Made by a program: the position numbers and the translations under genes
Source of the DNA: a virus
Taxonomy: Duplodnaviria > Caudoviricetes
Strand: one strand, 5' to 3'
IMG/VR virus record: IMGVR_UViG_3300032167_000004
Coordinates: 64,001 to 128,000 of that record
Length of the DNA stretch: 64,000 nt
The notes under the pieces: generated by a model
Databases searched by the model: none
What the model was told of the DNA's origin: nothing
Seen by the model: only the letters and a program-made list of their open reading frames with translations
Shown: positions 7,158-56,463 of the stretch, in pieces
Layout of the letters: each line of letters opens with the position of its first letter
Position numbering within the stretch: the stretch's first letter is position 1

Positions 7158-7427
7158 ATGAAATTTACTGAAAAGACAGTATTTAAAACAGCTAGAGCTT
7201 GTACTCCTATATATGTTGAATTAGAATGTGTATGTGGAGGTCATTATATTACTAAGGATATTAAAGTAGAAAATAAGTATCTTGCTACATGTGATAAATG
7301 TGGAGATGAAATTTATACTTTTGGAGAATATCCCCATATTGATTATCAGCCGTTTGGTAGAGATCCAATATATTCAGAACATGTACGTGCATTTGTTGAA
7401 GAAAAGGAAAAAGTAAATGAAATTTAA
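7158..7427 (+). CDS. Small Zn-ribbon protein (CxCGG family)
   Basis: TPIYVELECVCGG...CDKCG, paralog of 5932. Confidence 0.7.
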   Translation: MKFTEKTVFKTARACTPIYVELECVCGGHYITKDIKVENKYLATCDKCGDEIYTFGEYPHIDYQPFGRDPIYSEHVRAFVEEKEKVNEI

Positions 7428-7593
7428 TATTTATACACTTAATGATAATGGTTCTGGAATGAAATATTCTAATAAAGAAGATTTCATGAAAGAAATTGGT
7501 TTAATGGTAGATGACTGTACTGCTAATGGCGGTACACAATTTACTATTCATATAGATGCTGATGCAAGTTGTTTTTATAAAGATAATGAGTGA
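7417..7593 (+). CDS. Hypothetical protein, 58 aa (not in ORF track)
   Basis: AAGGA RBS; MKFNIYTLNDNGSG...DADASCFYKDNE followed by a terminator. Confidence 0.6.
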   Translation: MKFNIYTLNDNGSGMKYSNKEDFMKEIGLMVDDCTANGGTQFTIHIDADASCFYKDNE

Positions 7594-12861: not shown

Positions 12862-12937
12862 GGGTCCATAGCTCAGTTGGTAGAGCAACGCCCTTTTAAG
12901 GCGTGGGTCAGCAGTTCGAGCCTGCTTGGACTCACCA
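12862..12937 (+). tRNA. tRNA-Lys(UUU)
   Basis: 76-nt cloverleaf GGGTCCA/TGGACTC, ACGCC-CTTTTAA-GGCGT, CCA end. Confidence 0.95.
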
Positions 12938-14377: not shown

Positions 14378-14454
14378 GGGCCTGTAGTTCAGTTGGTTAG
14401 AACCCTTGGCTCATAACCGAGTTGTCGCGAGTTCGAAGCTTGCCAGGCCTACCA
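14378..14454 (+). tRNA. tRNA-CAU, most likely Ile2 (lysidine-modified, reads AUA)
   Basis: 77-nt cloverleaf; GGGCCTG acceptor is Ile-like; lacks initiator features (C1:A72 mismatch, three G-C anticodon pairs); CCA end. Confidence 0.85.
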
Positions 14455-17299: not shown

Positions 17300-20064
17300 A
17301 TGGAATACTATCTGTTAGATGTTAAAAGCATTATTTATGTAAATGGTGCTGAAGTTGCATTTGATTATATCAATACGTATTTCGATCCGAAGAAAGCAGT
17401 TGATGAGGCAACTATCCTTTCGTCAAAGGATAATGTGATTTGTGTATCTGTTCATAAGTGGTATGTAAATGAAAAGGGTCGACATACTCATTCCGGCGAT
17501 ATTCTTTATCATTATGAAAAGAAGTTTACAAAATTGACAGATTTGACTAAATGATAATTTAGAGAGGAAAAAACTATGGAAAATCATATCAAGAAGCTTT
17601 ATGAAGCAACTAAAAATATTGAAATTTTTATCGCCAGTGCATGTGATTGGGTTGACGGTAAAAATGTTCCTTCTCTGGGTATCAGAGATCGAGAAAACAA
17701 GGGTTGTGAAATCGATGGTGTTTTCTGGCTCATTGCAGGTACAGTCAGATTAAAGGATACACATAAGCCTGTACAGTATCTCAGTATGCTGAAAGCTGAC
17801 ATTGATAATATCTATATCGATTTACGGGCACAAGCAATTCCTTATGGTGAATGTACTGTAACTGTTGATCTTGGTAAAAGAAAGATTATACATACTGAAA
17901 TGGGTGAAGATAGAATCTTTGCTCATCTTGAGGTGATGTGATGAATACATATATTGTAACATTGCTACCATATGGTGATAAAATGTTACCATATAAAATT
18001 ACTGTAACCTCTGATACATCTGATGATGCTATTATCAGAGCAAAACGATTTGTTGCTGAAACTGGATATTGGCCTCGACATCTTAATATTGAAGAAATAA
18101 TGGATTGTCTTGAAGTTAGTGAAATTACAATTTCAGCAACAAATATTACTTCATCTTTTTAATAAGGAGATAATTAAATGATTAATTGTGTAAATATCGA
18201 AACCAAAACTGCTATTTTTGGTTATGGTGGCATTAAAGTGGATGTTTCCGTTTATCGTTTAGGACTTTATGGAATCAGACCTCCTGTCGGTGCTGGAACC
18301 CAAATTCTCGATTCTAATGGAGAAAAAATCGGAGATTGGGAATATACTGGAGAACATTTCATCATATGTTTTGGTACATATGATGAAGCTAAATCTGTAT
18401 ATGAGCATCTCGAAGAAATCGAAAAGAATCAAGGTGGAATATTCAAGCATGACGGAATCACATTTGATTTCACTTGGTATCGTCAGGCAAGTATTGATGT
18501 TGTAAAGAAAGCCATGCGTTTTATTATTGGAAACTTTTTACAAGTAATGGCTTGTTAAAATTGGAGGCATTGTACAATGAAATATGTAATTTCACCACCA
18601 AGATTGAAACACTTCGTTAGAAGATATAAAGACGATATGGAACGTCTTAGCAAATATCCTGAACACAGTAAAGAAAGAGATCTGTTAGAGAGAAGAATTG
18701 AAAGACATAAACAAGATATTATCAATTATGTAATAAGTGAATCTTTTGAAACAGTTCTTAACACATTAGACCCGTAGAGAAAGGAAATTATATGGATATT
18801 ATTTTCTATTTTGTAATCTCCACATTTGCTGCATTTATCATATATGTCATTGGACCTCTTATTCATAAAGGGTTCAATAACTATGATTCTAAGGAATATG
18901 AGTTTGTGGATCGTGAGATTCCTGAGAAAAAGAAAAGACATAAGCCTAAGAAGGGTGTTATTTATGAGTAAAAAATATTATGATCTCATTAATTATTCCA
19001 GTATTAAAGACTCTGTTGATTTCTGGAATAGTCCAATGGCAGTCGGTTTATCTCATGAATTCAAAGGTAAGAATGTATTCCAAGCTATTGAATACTGGAA
19101 AAGCCGTGCTCTAAAGACAGATAAAATTGAATCATCTTTGGTAGTATATCTTGAAAATCATGATTTGCTATATAGTGATTATGAAATCAAGTTTATTACT
19201 GAATTACTGAATCATCCTGAAAGGGATAGATTTAGACTTATTCATGACGGTAGTTACTACAGTCATAGAATATGGTTCCATGTTGACCCAGATGATAAGA
19301 AGATTCATATTTCTCCAAGTATTTCTTGGTATGATGGTGGTAAATCTCTTAAACCTTTGTCTGATGAAATGAATATTTTACCTGTAGAGGATAAAATTCA
19401 ATTTCTATTGGATCACTTTGAAGTTGTCTATATTCAGATGCATATTGTAAAAAATCGATCTGATATTAGAGATATTATTTCTGATAGTGTACATGAATAT
19501 GCCTTGTTAGATTTTGATTTCTAAAAAAATAAAGAGGATTAAATTATGACTAGAGAAGAACAGCTGAGAAAAGAATACGAAGATAAGCTAAATGCTTTAA
19601 GAACAGAACAAAGAAATTGTACACATGAATGGGATGAAGTTAAATATGACCCGGAGATTAAAATGGAACCATGTGGATATAAAACGGTTACACAGGGTGT
19701 TCATGTATGGCGAGAAGCAACAGATTATCGTAGGGTAGAAGAAAAAAGATGGAGTAGAACTTGTAAGAAGTGTGGTAAGGTCGAGTATACGAAAGAATTA
19801 GTTGTTGTAAAGTATGAACCAAAGTTTTAAAGGATAATATGAGGTATAATAAAGAAAGGAATATGCATCATGAAGTTATATAATATTCTTTCTGTTATTA
19901 GCGGAGGTACTCACATTATCATTTATGATGGATGTGCAGAAGTTTTCAATGGAAAGATGTGCGAAGTATCTAAGACTGAATGGGATGAGAAGATGGATAG
20001 ATATATGAATAATGATATTATTCGTGTGAATACTATCGATGGAGCAATTACCATTGCAGTTTAA
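17300..20064 (+). CDS. Early operon of hypothetical genes (17300-17554, 17576-17941, 17941-18162, 18178-18558, 18577-18777, 18792-18971, 18964-19524, 19546-19830, 19870-20064)
   Basis: RBS-preceded ORFs between early promoter and terminator 20076-20111; 19546 has CTHEW...CKKCG. Confidence 0.6.
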
Positions 20065-20125
20065 TATACTTTTATAAAAATAAAGAGGGATTTATTTCCC
20101 TCTTTATTTTTTTATCTTTTTTTAT

Positions 20126-20138
20126 AAGTATATATTAT
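20126..20138 (+). promoter_or_regulatory. Early promoter motif upstream of RNAP gene
   Basis: AAGTATATATTAT. Confidence 0.6.
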
Positions 20139-20214
20139 ATTTATATGAACGGAATTTAAGATATAATTTTCGTTTTAACAGCATTATAATGGATACAACT
20201 AGAGGAGGATTAAT

Positions 20215-20406
20215 GTGAAACGTATTAAAGAATTTATATGCGATGATTATTGTATTCCAACAGATGAAGAATTGTTAGAATGCATTAATATCGCTAAATC
20301 CGAAAATTGTATTGTATATTTACATTATACACTACCAATGAGTCGTACACATACTTTATATATTGATAGTACGACAACTTTTGAAGAATTAAAAGAAAAT
20401 TTATAA
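20215..20406 (+). CDS. Hypothetical protein
   Basis: GAGGAGG RBS with GTG start. Confidence 0.55.
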   Translation: MKRIKEFICDDYCIPTDEELLECINIAKSENCIVYLHYTLPMSRTHTLYIDSTTTFEELKENL

Positions 20407-20427
20407 TATTATATGAGGTGATTTATT

Positions 20428-23400
20428 ATGAGCAAAAATAATAATACAGGTGTCCAATTAGAGAAACTTAATTGGGATAAAGAATGTGAATTAGATCTTA
20501 TGTTAGGTCGAGGATTCATTGTTTCTGAACCTGCAATTACTGGTAAAGACACTAAGTCTATGTATGGTATCCAATCACCTCTGTTTGCATCTGATTGGTC
20601 AGATGGAGAAGATGCATTCGCTGACCGTTTTAAATGTGCATGTGGTGCTATGAAAGGTAAAATTTTCGAAGGAGAAATTTGTCCTGAATGTAAAACTAAG
20701 ATTGAGTTTAGGGATGTCGATCTTAGCTATACCGGCTGGATAGTCATTAATAATCATAAGATTATTCAACCTATTTATTATAATAAATTAGCATCTATTA
20801 TTGGTAATAAAACTTTTAATGAAATTATTAAATATGATAAGTTTATCGATAGAGATGGACATGTACAAGAAAAGACAACAGATAGTAATCCTTTTAGAGG
20901 AATTGGATTGATTGAATTTAGAGAAAGATTCCAAGAGATATTGGATTATTATAAAGTAAAGAAAAAGAATAAATGGGAAGAAATCAGAGAGATTGAAGAA
21001 GATAAAGATAAAGTATTTACTTCATGTATTCCTGTGTTCAGTTCCGTAAATCTTTAATGCGGCTATATAAAGTGATTTATATAGTGAACTCTTTTAATTG
21101 CTGGGAACTCTAGAAATAGACAATCAGCAGCCAACCCTATAAATTGCATAATAATTAATTTAAAGAAGGTGTTTTAAATACTTTTTGAACGTATAGTTGA
21201 AATATTTTTACCATTTTATTACGAAGGTAAAAAGACAATATATCTTGTCAGTGATGCTGGTAGAATTATGAATGGTAAAAGTGGTAGAATATTAAAAACT
21301 CGTATAGAGAAAGATTATGAACGTGTTGGTTTATCACTTAATGGTGTAGATAAAGATTTTTCTGTACATCGTTTAGTGGCAATGGTATTTATTCCTAACC
21401 CTGAAAATAAACCAACAGTAAATCATATTAATATTCATAATTTAAGTGCTGCAGAAAATAAACAAGATAATTGTATTGAAAATCTCGAATGGGCAACATA
21501 TCCAGAACAAGCTGAACATGCTCTGAGAACTAAATTACGAGAACCATTACGAGGTGAAGATAATCCTGCAGCAAAATTAACTGAAGAAGATGTTAAAAAT
21601 ATATCAATGATATTTACAATGAATGAATTAACTATTTCAGAAATAGCAACTCTATTTAAAGTAGATTATGAAACAATACGTGATATATATTGTGGTAATA
21701 CATGGAGACATATTACATGTGACTATGATTTCAGTAATTATACTAAATTAGGTTGTGAAATATATACTGATGAACAAATTCATCATGTATGTAGATTTCT
21801 GGAAGAAAATAAATTACTGGTTTCAGAAATATCTAAAGAAACAGGTGTTGATGAATTCAATATTAGACATATTATAAGGAAAGATTCATGGTTACGAATT
21901 TCTAATAATTATAATATATCTAATTATGATAAAATTAGACCTGTTACAAAAAACACTGAAGAACAAATTCATCATGTGTGTAAATTATTAGAAGAAAATA
22001 AATTAACATTACATGAGATTTCTGATATAACTAGTGTAAAATATAAAGTAGTTAATGCCATTCTTAACGGTAAAAATTGGAAACATATCTCTTCACTATA
22101 TAATATCAACTATACCGCATTTGAGATTAAAAAATAAAAAAAATAATTATGCATTTTATAGGAAGGTTCAACGACTATTAAGTACATCCTAATGTAGATG
22201 GAAATGGAGAGCATCTTTAATAATAAGATGAAGATATAGTCTAGTCTTTATAGAAATATAAAGAAGTTCTATATAGAGAACTGTATAAGAGTAACGATCT
22301 TATATGAATATAACAATTAAGACCAGTGTCGTTCAGAAATGATAGTTTCTTTTATTCGACGATTGATAAGAAATACAATAGTATATTCTCGTCTGCACGT
22401 CTGTTAAATGATACAGACTTGTATGAAAAGAGAAGAAAGAAATGGACAAAGGAAAAAAGAGAAAGAATGGACATTGCTACTATTCTTTCAACAATTCAGG
22501 AAAAATTAATGCAGTTATGGGAATTAGTATTCGACCTTATAAACCAGAAGGATGGATTCATAAAATCGGAGATACTCGGTGGAATAAAACTAATTGTTCC
22601 TATACATAGTAATATGTATATAAAACTTTCTTAATTGCTGGGACATCATATATGGACAATCAGCAGCCAAGACTATCTAAAAAGATAGTAAGGTTCAACG
22701 ACTATTAGATTCAAGTGAATCATAATGGAAAGCTCCTTTTAATAAAAGGATGAAGATATAGTCTAATCTTTATAGTAATATAAAGCTGTTATTAAATTAA
22801 CGATATAAGAGTAATGAACTTATATGAATATTATTGGATTAATTTCTCTAGCCGTTGTAAAAATAATGCAACGTAACTCTTTTAATTGCTGGAAAGTCTA
22901 GAAATAGATAATCAGCATCCAAGACTATCTAAAAAAGATAGTAAGGTTCAACGACTATTAGATTCAAGTGAATCATAATGGAGAGCAACTTATTATAATA
23001 AGTTGAAGATATAGTCTAATCTTTATAGTAATATAAAGCTGTTATTAAATTAACGATATAAGAGTAATGAACTTATATGAATATTATTGGTTATTATTCC
23101 TGATCCTGAATTGAAAGCAGATGAAGTAAAACTTAACTATATGGCATTAAATTAAAAGTGTCCTCATATAGTAATATATGATGTAAAAACTTTCTTAATT
23201 GCTGGGAAATCCTATACGGACAATCAGCAGCGAATACTCTTTATAAAAAAATATAAAAAGGAGATACAGTATGAAATACGAATTTACGATAAAACCTATA
23301 GAAGGAGAAACCTATACTATATTAAAAGATATTGATGGTAATGATACTGAATTTTTAATTAGTAAAAATGGTTATATTACACCTTCTAATACTATCATTG

Positions 23401-24782
23401 TTGAAATATGGAAACCTATTTTTATAAATGGTGAAAAAACTCATTATTTGATCAGTGACTATGGTAGAATCAAAAATTCAAAAAAGAATAAAATACTTAA
23501 ACCTAAAACAAATGCATATTGGGGATATAAACAAGTTGATTTATCTATACATAATGTAAAGTATCAGTGTAAAGTTCATAGATTAGTAGCAGAAGCTTTT
23601 ATTCATAATCCTGGAAATAAAAAGACTGTAGACCATATAATTGTAACTTCTCCAAGTGAGATTGGTAAAGCTATTAATACAGTATTTAATTTACGATGGG
23701 CTACTCAAGAAGAACAAGCTAAATATGCTATTTCGTCTGGAGCTAGACATGGTGTTAAAGGATCTAAAAATCATCTTGCTAAAATGGATGAATTAATGGC
23801 ACATGCAATTTGCAAAGAAATTGTAAAATATGAGTTATCTATTATTGAGATTAGTAAAAAATTAAATATTCCGTCGCATACTATAACAGATATTTTAGAT
23901 AAAAGATCTTGGATACATATATCATCAAATTATGATATTGATAGATCTAGAATACCTTCTAGTAGAAGAGGATTAGACAAAGAAGATTTATTTAAAATAT
24001 TTAAGTTGCGAGATGATGGATATACTTATAAATATATTGCTGATCAGATTGATAATAAGATAACATCAGGTGCTATAAGAGATATGATGAATCGACCCGG
24101 TAGTTATAAAAAAGAAAAAGAAGAATATGCATTATTATATAAAAATAATAAAGAGTAACGTTCAACGACTAATATATCTGTGTAAGATAGTAATAGAAAG
24201 TATCCTATTCATCAAATAGGATAATGATATAGTCTAATCTTTATAGTAATATAAAGCAGTTATTAAAATAACGGTGTAAGATTAACAATCTTATATGAAT
24301 AAAATGTTTTGGAACTTTATAAGTACGAGATAATCGCATATCTCGTTAAGATGGCAGGTATTACTGAAAATGAAGCCTATGAAGCTTGGTTTAAAGCCCG
24401 TATAGTTTATAATCCTAAAATTTATGAAGTAATGAATTTTATTCTTAAGAAAAGAAAGCCTAAGATCCTGATTAATCGTAACCCCACGATTAATTATGGG
24501 TCCTTGCTTTGTGTTAAGATTAAATCTATTAAGAACGAGTTTTCTGAAGATTACACGATGAGTATGCCACTGCAGATTTTAAGTGTACTGAACGCTGACT
24601 TCGACGGAGATATTCTGAATATTATTAGTCTGAAAACAAAAGCTTTAGAAAAAGAATATAATAAGATTTTTAATCCTAGATTAAATCTCTTTGTTAGTAG
24701 AAATGATGGCATGTTCAATAGTGATGTATCTTTGTTTAAAGATGAAATTATTGGATTGTGGTCCTTTAATAATATTGAATAA
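20428..24782 (+). CDS. Catalytic RNA polymerase beta'-like subunit, N-terminal half (non-virion RNAP, AR9 gp270/phiKZ gp55-like); spliced, join(20428..21047,22316..22585,22837..22858,23090..23147,24307..24782), 481 aa
   Basis: Joined exons (1446 nt) are in frame and restore the CxCG/CPEC Zn finger, IPVFSSVLRP, ILGGMINFSSRCVIIP, AFLELYK, NRNPT and NADFDGD. Confidence 0.9.
21048..22315 (+). mobile_element. Group I intron 1 with HNH endonuclease; terminal nucleotide A
   Basis: P1 CCGU/GCGG with U-G, AATTGCTGGGAA (P), AATCAGCAG (Q), GTTCAACGACTA (R), AAGATATAGTCT (S); P10 TTAAT pairs with exon ATTAA. Confidence 0.9.
21178..22137 (+). CDS. Intron-encoded NUMOD4-HNH homing endonuclease with C-terminal HTH repeats
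   Basis: VHRLVA..FIPNPENKPTVNHIN...DNCIENLEW; frame open from ATA 21178 (after AAGAAGGTG), encoding NUMOD4 EIF.P...YLVSDAGR; first ATG at 21268. Confidence 0.85.
   Translation: MLFERIVEIFLPFYYEGKKTIYLVSDAGRIMNGKSGRILKTRIEKDYERVGLSLNGVDKDFSVHRLVAMVFIPNPENKPTVNHINIHNLSAAENKQDNCIENLEWATYPEQAEHALRTKLREPLRGEDNPAAKLTEEDVKNISMIFTMNELTISEIATLFKVDYETIRDIYCGNTWRHITCDYDFSNYTKLGCEIYTDEQIHHVCRFLEENKLLVSEISKETGVDEFNIRHIIRKDSWLRISNNYNISNYDKIRPVTKNTEEQIHHVCKLLEENKLTLHEISDITSVKYKVVNAILNGKNWKHISSLYNINYTAFEIKK
22586..22836 (+). mobile_element. Group I intron 2 (251 nt, no ORF)
   Basis: P1 GGAAU/GUUCC, P/Q/R/S elements, terminal G, P10 TAATT:GATTA. Confidence 0.9.
22859..23089 (+). mobile_element. Group I intron 3 (231 nt, no ORF)
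   Basis: P1 CGUUGU/GCAACG, P/Q/R/S elements, terminal G, P10 AATAAT:GTTATT. Confidence 0.9.
23148..24306 (+). mobile_element. Group I intron 4 with HNH endonuclease
   Basis: P1 GGCAU/GUGUC, P/Q/R/S elements, terminal G24306, P10 TTAAAA:TTTTGG. Confidence 0.9.
23271..24158 (+). CDS. Intron-encoded NUMOD4-HNH homing endonuclease
   Basis: EIWKPI...YLISDYGR, VHRLVAEAFI.NP..KKTVDH...NLRW; AAAGGAG RBS; inserted in P6 loop. Confidence 0.85.
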   Translation: MKYEFTIKPIEGETYTILKDIDGNDTEFLISKNGYITPSNTIIVEIWKPIFINGEKTHYLISDYGRIKNSKKNKILKPKTNAYWGYKQVDLSIHNVKYQCKVHRLVAEAFIHNPGNKKTVDHIIVTSPSEIGKAINTVFNLRWATQEEQAKYAISSGARHGVKGSKNHLAKMDELMAHAICKEIVKYELSIIEISKKLNIPSHTITDILDKRSWIHISSNYDIDRSRIPSSRRGLDKEDLFKIFKLRDDGYTYKYIADQIDNKITSGAIRDMMNRPGSYKKEKEEYALLYKNNKE

Positions 24783-24799
24783 TAAGAGGATATATTATT

Positions 24800-26812
24800 A
24801 TGGCTAAAGATATTAATGAAGAAATTGATAGATTATTATATATAAGAAATGAAGTATATTTTTATACTAAATTATTAATTGCAGATAAAAATATAAGAAT
24901 TATAAGTAAAGATAAATTTAATCAATGGATGAATGAAAATAAATTAGATAAAGATATAATTTATTGTACAGTAGATCCAGAGATTGGTCAGTATATTGAA
25001 GGATATATTGAATAAGAGATAAATATATGGTAGTAGTAAAGATTTAATTTACTACTACCATATTATATAAATTTTTTATATAAGGATATACTTATGAAAG
25101 AAATTAAAATATTAATATATGTAATGATCATTAGTGGATTAGTATGTTTTAGAACCATTGGAAGATTTATGACTGATAAAATAAAAACAGAATGGTCATT
25201 TGAATATCTTATATTTGGATATGGTGGAGCATTAGTGTTTGTCGGTAGTGTTGAATTATTAGTATATTACATATTTTTTATATAGAGGTGTATAAAAATG
25301 GAGAATAAATTAATTATAATTGGTATTATTGCCTTTGTATTGTTATCTATTTCAATCAGCTTCTATATTGGTTATATATTAGGTTTTAAAAAATCTAAAG
25401 AGATTGATGATAATATTTTAAATGAATTAAGAGAGAAATATGTTAAACCATTTTATTTAGATGAAGATGATTATATATAAGGAGAAAACAATGGACAAGA
25501 AAACTGATAGAGGTTATTTATATATTAAAGCTGATAATCCTTATATAAATGGAATTCTTGGTACTGATATTAAATTAACCTTTAAACAGAAAATAGATAT
25601 ACTTTTTAGTAAAGGTATATGTGTATTATTAAGAGGAAATGATATCATTAAATCAAAAGGACCTTTGAAATAAATGGGATGTGAAGGATGTATTCATTAT
25701 TCATTTTGTGGATATTTTGATTTATATTATGGTAAAATGACAGAAGAAGAAAGATTTAAAGAGCATTGTGTTGGTTGTTGCTGTGGTGATGGAGCGGAAT
25801 GTAATAAACACAATGGTGAAGGTCATAAATGTACAAATTGGGAAGATGGTTCTGAACCATTAATGGGATAATATGACTGTTGAAGAATTAATTAAAAAAT
25901 TGGAAGAATTTCCAAAAGATATGGAAGTTTATGTTGGTTATGATGAAATAGAACGTGTATATGAAAGTACATGGACACATAGTAATTATCCATATAATAA
26001 ACCAGATAAACAGATAGTAATTATTGATTAATATAAGAGGAGAATAATATGTTTAAAGATGCAGTAGTAGTAACTTCTAAATTTTTAGAGTTAAGAGACA
26101 AATTAAATCATAATATTAGTATGAATAAAGGATATAACAATAGTATTATGCGAGAACATGGTAAAAGTGAAGAAACACTTAATCTGTATGAGTTACAAAA
26201 AGCTTTCGGTGAATTATGTGAACTTTTACATGATTTAGCATTATCTGCTAATAAATAAGTTGGGGAGAAACTATATGAGTTGTATTTCAAGCAATAATTA
26301 TCCTACAAAAGGAAGAAACCTTGATCTTAAGATTAATAACCCTTCATTTATAAAAGATACTATAGATTCACATATATCATATAAAGAAATCATTCTTGCT
26401 GAATGGGACATGGTGATGGATGATTTTGATGATGGTGTTGGTACTAGACTTTTACCTCATTGTACAAATTGTCATAGAGGTGTATATAAACATGATGCTG
26501 GTAAATGGTGTACATTTTGTGGAGCATTAATGAAAAACCCAATAGCATTATAATATATTAGGAGAAATATTGAATATGAAAATGTTTTCTGATTGTAGTG
26601 GAGAATGTTGTGTTTGTGCATGTGGAGATTTTTGTCTTGCGGGACATGGTGATGATGATTTCCGTTTAGCTACTAAAGAACAAATTATTTCACGATTAGA
26701 TAAAGGTCAATATAGATCATATAGATTTATGATGGTTAATACATTATTCAATGTATATAACTATGAATATACTAGATCTGAGTTAGAAATTAGAGGGGAG
26801 AAAACTGTATGA
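24800..26812 (+). CDS. Run of small hypothetical genes (24800-25015, 25094-25285, 25298-25480, 25491-25673, 25674-25871, 26049-26258, 26275-26553, 26570-26812), several TM or Cys-rich
   Basis: RBS-preceded short ORFs; terminator-like hairpin 25025-25063. Confidence 0.55.
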
Positions 26813-55827: not shown

Positions 55828-56463
55828 TTAAGTGACATCCATATGAACACAACGATTATTCGTTCCTTCAATCTTGTAATGATATCTAATTCTAGGACGA
55901 GTATTTAAATAAGCTTCAATTTGATAAGCAGTTTTACCTTGAATGTAGAAATCCATTGCCTTACCATATAAATGTCTAGAATTAGAAACTCCACCCTCAT
56001 TTGCATTATGAACAGGACATCTAATACCACTAGTTACAATAACAGGTCCTAATTCTTCTCTCATAATATCTGCTTCTTCAAGTAATATTCTACTCATTGT
56101 AGCAGTATCACCTTTACAATGTCTGCCACCACATTTGCATGTAAATTCATCTTCTGTAAAATATTTAATACCTGCAAATACACCAGTCTTATTATTAGTA
56201 GTAGTTGTAGTATTGATAACAACTTTATTTGTAGAAGATGATGTAGTCGTTGTAGTATTTGTATTATTAATTTTAATACCTTCACCAATGACTTTTAATA
56301 TTTCTTCTTCAGTTTTAGGACCAAAAACTCCATCAGGAGTTAAATTTCTTTCTTTTTGAAATTGTTTAGTTGCTTCACTTGACTGAGCACCAAAATCACC
56401 ATCAATTTCACCTTTATATAAACCTAAATATGCTAATAAATTTTGTTTTTGTTTGTTAGTCAT
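55828..56463 (-). CDS. Endolysin: peptidoglycan-binding domain plus peptidase M15
   Basis: DGDFG...FQ....L.PDG.FGP.T; SGIRC..HN...GG..NSRH..G.A.D...VH.D. Confidence 0.9.
   Translation of the reverse strand: MTNKQKQNLLAYLGLYKGEIDGDFGAQSSEATKQFQKERNLTPDGVFGPKTEEEILKVIGEGIKINNTNTTTTTSSSTNKVVINTTTTTNNKTGVFAGIKYFTEDEFTCKCGGRHCKGDTATMSRILLEEADIMREELGPVIVTSGIRCPVHNANEGGVSNSRHLYGKAMDFYIQGKTAYQIEAYLNTRPRIRYHYKIEGTNNRCVHMDVT

Follow-up and report, generated by a model that had tools for sequence, protein, structure and literature searches.

How can the gene for an essential RNA polymerase subunit of a phage be divided into five pieces, two of them micro-exons, and still encode one protein, and what do the interruptions mean for the phage? 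This question is raised by positions 20428-24782 of a 64,000-nucleotide (nt) stretch of viral DNA, here called the window, which corresponds to bases 64001-128000 of the 263,786-bp virus record IMGVR_UViG_3300032167_000004 (G000), a record rated complete. Our answer, which we regard as very probable, is that a single-copy gene for the N-terminal half of the beta' subunit (beta'-N) of the non-virion RNA polymerase (nvRNAP) was invaded by four mobile group I introns, all from one family, and that the micro-exons are by-products of this invasion.

Exon and intron boundaries (Table 1) were derived independently from the P1 and P10 pairings of each intron and from orthologue alignment. They agree with the original prediction, which was made from the sequence alone and had placed four group I introns and both micro-exons here. 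When joined, the five exons form a stop-free frame of 1446 nt or 481 codons, which is gapless to orthologues and matches the 481-residue beta'-N protein that had been proposed. The introns account for 2909 nt, two thirds of the 4355-nt gene. The predicted joins read GTTCCGT/ATTAAGA (exons 1 and 2), GGTGGAAT/GATTAAT (exons 2 and 3), CCGTTGT/GTTATTA (exons 3 and 4) and ATGGCAT/TTTTGGA (exons 4 and 5). An in-frame stop is found 3-16 codons past every 5' splice site, a feature common in bacterial and phage introns (PMC3073962). Exon 1 has the ribosome-binding site GAGGTGA 8 nt upstream, contains a Cys-rich zinc-finger-like stretch, ends with ...IPVFSS(V) and shows 33% identity to g274 of Yersinia phage phiR1-37. 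Exon 2 reads (V)LRPVSFRND...KSEILGG(M) and is 76-91% identical to the corresponding parts of L006 and L008.

L006 and L008, as well as L003, L004, L009 and L010, are IMG/VR contigs whose orthologues are uninterrupted at all four sites of the window. The spliced protein aligns without gaps across all junctions to L003 (75% identity), L006 (73%), L009 (69%), L010 (59%), L004 (36%) and L008 (exon pieces 59-92% identical), the ungapped positions being V207-L208, G296-M297-I298, C304-V305 and A323-F324-L325. DNA alignments are likewise ungapped over all four junctions. Exon 3 is gapless in L003, L006, L008 and L009, where the stretch reads GGMI(N/S)(F/W)SSR(C/D), and in 86 orthologues; L008 reads SEILGGMINFSSRCVIIPDPELKADEIRLNYMAFLELYKYEII within one uninterrupted exon. 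A MAFFT alignment with 86 full-length uninterrupted proteins of the family contained no gap in the 72 junction columns (residues 197-220 and 288-335). The junction stretches are more conserved than the protein average (top-residue frequency 0.78-0.81 vs 0.64), and R209 is conserved in 100% of the 86 orthologues. Because of this gapless and conserved alignment to uninterrupted orthologues, both micro-exons are, by comparative sequence evidence, real coding exons. In independent assemblies of this DNA, the gene calls consist of pieces of 209, 102/55 and 143 residues and miss both micro-exons, as had been foreseen for gene callers.

On a map of Escherichia coli beta', intron 1 is located beside the motif matching L249 of DLRP (LRP of exon 2 corresponds by motif to D248-LRP251). 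Introns 2 and 3 are positioned at R346 and behind S353, respectively, both in or at the end of GKRVDYSGRS, and intron 4 at A373 of KKMALELF. Exon 3 corresponds to residues 346-353 and exon 4 to residues 354-373.

Table 1. Features of the interrupted beta'-N gene and its upstream region in window coordinates (ORF, open reading frame; HTH, helix-turn-helix)
Feature	Position	Strand	Basis or context
Exon 1, 620 nt, residues 1-206 and 2 nt of codon 207	20428..21047	+	ORF 20428-21057; gapless to orthologues
Intron 1, 1268 nt, group I, endonuclease ORF in P6 loop	21048..22315	+	RF00028 halves, core alignment
Intron 1 ORF, I-HmuI-like HNH with HTH repeats	21178..22137	+	phrog_59, PDB 1U3E
Exon 2, 270 nt, codon 207 base 3 to codon 297 base 2	22316..22585	+	tblastn to phiR1-37 g274
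Intron 2, 251 nt, group I without ORF, ends ...UAUUG	22586..22836	+	RF00028 full model
Exon 3, 22-nt micro-exon, (M)INFSSRC: codon 297 base 3 and INFSSRC	22837..22858	+	Gapless orthologue alignment
Intron 3, 231 nt, group I without ORF, without P2, ends ...UAUUG	22859..23089	+	RF00028
Exon 4, 58-nt micro-exon, VIIPDPELKADEVKLNYMA and codon 324 (F) base 1	23090..23147	+	ORF fragment 23087-23155; gapless orthologue alignment
Intron 4, 1159 nt, group I, endonuclease ORF in P6 loop, ends ...AAAUG	23148..24306	+	RF00028 halves, core alignment
Intron 4 ORF, 295 residues, NUMOD4 and HNH, I-HmuI-like	23271..24158	+	Pfam NUMOD4, phrog_59, PDB 1U3E
Exon 5, 476 nt including stop, (F)LELYKYEII...NADFDGD...FNNIE-stop	24307..24782	+	RNA_pol_Rpb1_2; 36% identity to phiR1-37 g274
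Possible AR9-type early promoter, AAGTATATATTAT-N6-A	20126..20145	+	About 300 nt upstream of beta'-N gene, before a 63-residue ORF

Judged by its sequence, the interrupted gene is that for the catalytic N-terminal half of beta' of the non-virion (late) RNA polymerase and an orthologue of AR9 gp270. Its nearest cultured relatives are found in phiR1-37, the Staphylococcus jumbo phages and Bacillus phage AR9/PBS1, each of which has two multisubunit RNA polymerases. The spliced product could be aligned to the AR9 gene with 32% identity (E 6e-41). For the intron-less orthologue of L006, the top relative of solved structure is the beta' chain of AR9 nvRNAP (7S00/7S01 chain d, E 4e-48), followed by phiKZ nvRNAP (7OGP_A, E 1.4e-15), while cellular beta' subunits matched with E 1e-9 or weaker. 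The catalytic triad motif NADFDGD lies in exon 5 at residues 419-425 of 481 and aligns with E. coli beta' 458-464, in accordance with the catalytic identity originally predicted; the protein stops shortly after it, as in a split beta'. Exon 5 also matches Pfam RNA_pol_Rpb1_2 (E 2.7e-6). No second copy of beta'-N was found in the 263,786-bp genome, i.e. the gene is single-copy. A distant beta'-like gene at 11.6-13.6 kb of G000 (E 4e-5; phrog_2986) probably encodes the paralogous subunit of the virion enzyme, which is indirect support for placing the interrupted gene with the non-virion enzyme.

The four intervening sequences were compared with the Rfam group I intron model RF00028 (gathering score 50). 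Intron 2 scored 84.6 bits (E 4.4e-20, 22576-22785) and intron 3 83.7 bits (E 8.2e-20, 22835-23038). In a permissive scan, two halves of the model were matched in intron 1 (21038-21199, 30.8 bits, E 4e-5; 22147-22263, 36.0 bits, E 1e-6) and in intron 4 (23200-23270, 22.6 bits, E 0.012; 24202-24254, 31.3 bits, E 3e-5). These half-matches bracket long ORFs (21268-22137 and 23271-24158), a split match of this kind being the hallmark of group I introns that carry an ORF. With the ORFs removed, the four introns align as one family with 70-84% identity, introns 2 and 3 being 84% identical. Common to the four cores are the P/Q/R/S blocks, P3, P4 (AAUUGCUGG / AAUCAGCA), P6, P7 (ACGACUA / UAGUC), P8, P9 and two 3' hairpins. 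RNAalifold was applied to nine ORF-less members of the family, namely introns 2 and 3, four introns of L008, two from elsewhere in the genome and one of L020, a relative described below. It returned 45 pairs, 21 of them with compensatory changes, in P3, P4, P5, P6, P9 and P9.2.

At each 5' splice site a U.G pair of P1 is present (U21047.G21059, U22585.G22596, U22858.G22868 and U23147.G23158), within the pairings CCGU/GCGG (intron 1), GGAAU/GUUCC (intron 2), CGUUGU/GCAACG (intron 3) and GGCAU/GUGUC (intron 4). A P10 helix of 5-6 bp begins in exact register with the first base of the 3' exon in all four introns, its partner bases lying just 5' of the guide; examples are AUUAAG with UUUAAU (intron 1, 6 bp) and UUUUGG with UUAAAA (intron 4). 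The P1 U-G pair, the P10 helix and the P/Q/R/S core that had been claimed for all four introns are present in each of them. Of the 22 nt of exon 3, five take part in P10 of intron 2 and another six in P1 of intron 3, which means that half of this micro-exon serves as a guide-pairing partner. All four are thus group I introns of one family, and we infer that their precise excision would restore the 481-codon frame.

On this reading, four such mobile introns invaded the beta'-N gene. The guide of each intron pairs on one side with the last bases of the upstream exon (P1, U.G being the pair at the cut) and on the other with the start of the downstream exon (P10). Since each intron carries its own guide, independent excision of the four ribozymes from the pre-mRNA is expected. 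The ORF-less introns 2 and 3 have an endonuclease-bearing neighbour no more than about 350 bp away; most likely, they were carried along with it by co-conversion, or their own endonucleases have been lost. The 22- and 58-nt exons would be by-products of three independent homing sites within 27 strongly conserved codons (GG-M-INFSSRC-VIIPDP...YMAF-LEL), and not a control device. The cost to the phage would be that all four excisions must be accurate, because loss of a micro-exon breaks the frame: loss of exon 3, exon 4 or both (22, 58 or 80 nt) shifts it, and only loss of exon 2 (270 nt) keeps it.

A 42-nt stretch that is 98% identical to a segment repeated in introns 2-4 was found at positions 56414-56455 of PQ006092.1, where it adjoins an endonuclease gene. 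This sequence is bajarodcaudo virus 1 from rodent faeces, an unrelated 98-kb phage, which indicates that the intron family crosses phage groups.

Several observations weigh against the interpretation as four precisely excised introns. Introns 1 and 4 do not reach the Rfam gathering score with RF00028, which is to be expected of introns that carry an ORF. The P10 helices, rich in A and U, are predicted to be only marginally stable (-0.5 to -1.5 kcal/mol). Protein collections, searched with intron-less orthologues, yielded neither a spliced nor an intron-free copy of the exact allele, and JGI metagenome contigs yielded neither the junction sequence of exons 2-3-4 nor that of exons 1-2; neither result is evidence of absence. 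Finally, intron 1 ends with ...UAACA, its last base being A22315 (or A22316) and not the terminal G (omega-G) normally required for exon ligation by group I introns, and its P7 guanosine-binding pair (G-C) looks canonical and unchanged.

Omega-G is present in introns 2-4 (G22836, G23089 and G24306), and 13 of the 13 other introns with the end read finish in G (introns 2-4, five of L008, two of L020, one of L003 and two elsewhere in the genome). From ribozyme work, a terminal A should cripple exon ligation unless the guanosine-binding pair also changes. The 3' end of intron 1 is set by the frame, by an in-frame TAA at 22311-22313, by the 6-bp P10 (22316 as first exon base) and by the gapless VLRP in 86 orthologues. 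Other ends were considered and rejected: with G22306 the in-frame TAA remains in the sole usable frame, G22321 would remove L208 and R209, of which R209 is invariant in the 86 orthologues, and no combination of a U-ending 5' site with a G-ending 3' site keeps the conserved VLRP. The same base is present in two independent assemblies (L011 and L012, contigs from ENA ERZ27248306 and JGI 3300019378). The ENA contig is identical to the window over 18268-24866 and the JGI contig over 18268-23835, and A22315 is therefore not an assembly slip.

Either intron 1 tolerates the A, or splicing at intron 1 is poor. If exons 1 and 2 stayed unjoined or were joined at a cryptic G, the gene would be inactive or the protein truncated or altered. 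This would fit the A at a position where introns 2-4 and ten other introns have G, the lack of a compensating change in P7 and the intron 1 endonuclease ORF, which has no canonical start before its conserved N-terminus. However, the sequence is the same base for base in independent assemblies, and the phage is widespread, since 38 blocks of the collection contain the intron 1 endonuclease protein. In addition, all five exons are open and conserved, the ribozyme core is without decay, there is no second copy of the gene, and neither cryptic G gives an acceptable product. A crippled gene is hence improbable, and a pseudogene was rejected as the main explanation. For the view that intron 1 ligates its exons precisely despite the adenosine end and a canonical G-C pair in P7, the balance tips slightly in favour. 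If it does, either the omega-G rule is relaxed in this family or the 3' splice site is positioned by something else, for which the 6-bp P10, a neighbouring ribozyme or a protein would be candidates.

Sister copies of the 3' end of intron 1 were searched for in other phages: a near-exact pattern gave no match, and a looser pattern gave 117 loci, all of them chance matches. Two relatives have an intron at the intron 1 site (proteins P0128 and P0134), and one of the contigs ends before its intron does. The P10 guide UUUAAU of intron 1 (21051-21058) also fits bases 2-6 of exon 3 (AUUAA, 22838-22842), which follow G22837. If exon 1 were mis-spliced to exon 3 at 22838, the terminal G would be a proper one, but the reading frame would be lost. 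Duplex energies of cognate and non-cognate P1/P10 pairings were also compared; the helices are too weak and A/U-rich for these values to inform on the risk of skipping.

Both endonuclease ORFs resemble I-HmuI, the HNH nicking endonuclease of the DNA polymerase intron of phage SPO1 (PDB 1U3E). The intron 1 ORF matches phrog_59 HNH endonucleases (E 4.7e-48) from residue 8 of the extended frame and 1U3E with query residues 18-116 (E 2.7e-9). The intron 4 ORF matches NUMOD4 (E 7e-10), phrog_59 (E 2.4e-29) and 1U3E (E 5e-4) and starts with an ATG behind a strong ribosome-binding site (AAGGAG). The N-terminal DNA-binding and HNH region of I-HmuI aligns with both ORFs. In contrast to I-HmuI (174 residues), the ORFs of the window are longer (295 and 289-319 residues) and feature extra C-terminal HTH repeats and longer loops in the HNH motif. 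Counted from the ATG at 21268, the intron 1 ORF has 289 residues, but similarity to I-HmuI begins 13 codons before that ATG. The frame is open from 21178 without an ATG, GTG or TTG before 21268; only ATA codons (21178, 21193 and 21202) follow a GAAGGTG. By sequence, the ORF would thus either use a non-AUG start or be N-terminally truncated. A non-AUG start is a known means of damping intron ORFs (PMC3073962). In a relative, the intron at the intron 1 site carries a 309-residue NUMOD4 ORF.

As an addition to the reading of mobile introns, the endonucleases of introns 1 and 4 may cut or nick the intron-free beta'-N genes of co-infecting relatives. This would give the phage an edge and would explain the differing intron sets among co-circulating relatives, and we regard both suggestions as tentative and rather unlikely. 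A precedent is the intron endonuclease in the RNA polymerase gene gp210 of PhiPA3, which acts in this way on PhiKZ (PMC11620839). Also consistent with such a role are the I-HmuI-like character of both enzymes and the variation of intron content at at least ten sites of this one gene among relatives in the same data sets. On the other hand, the empty sites of the sampled relatives differ from the junctions of the window at 11-19 of 42 bases, and the intron 1 endonuclease may be truncated.

Across relatives, at least ten intron sites were found in this gene, and most of them differ from those of the window. L004, L006, L009 and L010 have no beta'-N intron, L003 has one, L020 two and L008 five. 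The single intron of L003 is located after DYTMS408, that of AR9 inside DYDG/D. L020 (581-3524, from ENA ERZ28633317), an 87%-identical relative, has introns at the intron 3 site and 4 nt downstream of the intron 4 site, separated by a 62-nt exon, and none at the sites of introns 1 and 2. Its intron at the intron 3 site contains a 328-residue NUMOD4 endonuclease and its second intron is ORF-less, i.e. the roles of the two introns are swapped compared to the window. In the closest relative found, L008 (6082-9590, IMGVR_UViG_3300001528_000285), the five group I introns are at sites other than those of the window: after I223, G288, I386, D421 (NAD/FDGD) and G473. All of them end in G, and the last exon is 26 nt long. 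Truncated ORFs in public data indicate that the sites of introns 1, 2, 3 and 4 are reused in other lineages. A gene product, P0157 (ENA), is 100% identical to exon-5 residues 339-412 and then continues with intron-like ...FLNCWKLL, the AAUUGCUGG block, which points to another strain of this phage that carries a fifth intron after MPL412.

Since orthologues carry no introns or different sets, the introns are dispensable and subject to fast turnover. This is as expected for selfish homing into conserved codons, in which introns are often gained and lost and endonucleases decay. In the intron of L003 (6256-7602), the whole ribozyme core is found at the 3' end (RF00028 51.9 bits, 7358-7560), and some 1.1 kb of additional sequence separates it from P1; cargo is not usually located there.

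The original prediction had further proposed that splicing gates the early-to-late switch and that skipping of the micro-exons has to be avoided or could be regulatory. Four splicing events, or regulated skipping, would then time or throttle the production of nvRNAP and in this way control the switch. In AR9 this enzyme transcribes late genes (PMC5312081), a possible promoter of the early type is located upstream at 20126, and skipping of exons by introns of group I was reported in Twort (PMC3073962), which also makes skipping a fair concern for the present gene. The gate itself is disfavoured by the intron-free orthologues, which are common (L004, L006, L009, L010 and the 86 full-length family proteins), by close relatives with other introns at other sites (with zero, one, two or five introns in total) and by the strain that has an identical exon-5 segment and an extra intron. 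Neither a sensor nor an alternative structure was seen. Because skipping of exon 3, exon 4 or both shifts the frame, it would be a cost and not an isoform switch: it would lower the yield without producing a useful isoform. We therefore consider a regulatory gate very improbable and retain the reading of invasion by mobile introns.

Introns of the same family were also found in three more RNA polymerase subunit genes of this genome (G000:C1 11643-13575; 43389-47500, minus strand; 188629-191190), which match phrog_2986; phrog_38251, 3148 and 14872; and Pfam Rpb2_6. The gyrA and terminase genes of the same genome have likewise been invaded by the family: gyrA (G000:C1 159242-162605, minus strand) is interrupted by an intron that contains an endonuclease ORF, and the terminase large-subunit gene (242516-246299, minus strand) by two or more introns. 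Next to a TnpB (OrfB_IS605) gene (181870-183443), a group I ribozyme is found.

Group I introns with HNH genes are already established in RNA polymerase genes of jumbo phages (AR9, PhiPA3 gp210 and phiKZ gp55/56.1). The RefSeq orthologue in AR9, BI022_gp269, the nvRNAP beta'-N gene termed gp270 by Lavysh et al., is annotated as joined from two pieces around the HNH gene BI022_gp270, in agreement with the earlier statement that such introns are known in AR9. In both phages the orthologous gene is interrupted by an intervening sequence with an HNH/NUMOD4 endonuclease gene. AR9 has one intron, located in the catalytic DYDG/D motif, and no micro-exon, whereas the gene of the window has four introns (at V207/L208, M297, C304/V305 and F324), none of them in the catalytic motif, and two micro-exons. 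The virion beta'-N gene of AR9 is also interrupted by a group I intron (PMC12350094). In PhiPA3, an intron in the RNA polymerase beta gene gp210 has a competitive role (PMC11620839). In PhiPA3 gp210 and phiKZ gp55/56/56.1, as in the gene of the window, a conserved motif of a multisubunit RNA polymerase gene of a jumbo phage is interrupted by a group I intron that carries an HNH endonuclease; PDB 7OGP names the phiKZ chain PHIKZ055 / PHIKZ056.1. In contrast to the window, both phages are nucleus-forming Pseudomonas phages with single introns.

Single phage genes that carry several related introns have likewise been described. Staphylococcus phage Twort has three similar group I introns in one gene, with exon skipping (PMC3073962, PMC11878797), and thus shares with the window several related introns in one protein gene and short internal exons at risk of skipping. 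Its gene is of unknown function and skipping was seen experimentally, whereas in the window four introns interrupt an essential polymerase subunit gene and splicing is predicted from sequence. In the Bastillevirinae, DNA polymerase and terminase genes have up to three group I introns (PMC11878797), again multiple related introns in one essential phage gene. The genes concerned are different, three is the maximum reported, and micro-exons were not found in the text of that source that was searched. Four introns (five in L008) together with a 22-nt internal exon are thus a step past the published cases compared here, but of the same kind.

In the region around the gene (window 18-27 kb), the G + C content is 20-34%. 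The motif at 20126 (Table 1) has two mismatches to the early consensus of AR9, AAATATATATTAT-N6-G (PMC5312081). At the same stringency, 23 such motifs occur in the window compared to a chance mean of 14.8, an excess that is not clear, and the motif is weak evidence for an early promoter. The AR9-type late promoter AACA-N6-TR is rarer in the window than in shuffled sequences (98 vs 145), and single sites near the gene mean little. One late-promoter-like AACA-N6-TA is located at 24284-24295, in the hairpin P9.2 of intron 4, where its final base lies 12 nt ahead of exon 5; sister introns read AACG or AATG in place of AACA. Given that the motif is under-represented in the window, this site probably arose by chance. 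Two tRNA genes are located upstream in the window (12862-12934 and 14378-14451, with 67.9 and 57.3 bits).

Surveys of jumbo-phage RNA polymerases will miss or misjudge this gene, as gene callers lose 80 coding bases. Four ribozymes of the same family within 4.4 kb, two of them 22 nt apart, provide a natural test of how cross-splicing is avoided. If intron 1 is indeed spliced precisely, an adenosine-ended intron works in an essential gene of a widespread phage, which would challenge a textbook rule of group I catalysis. With introns at at least ten sites of one gene and strains that differ in their sets, the beta'-N gene of these phages is a good system for the study of homing, endonuclease loss and competition between phages.

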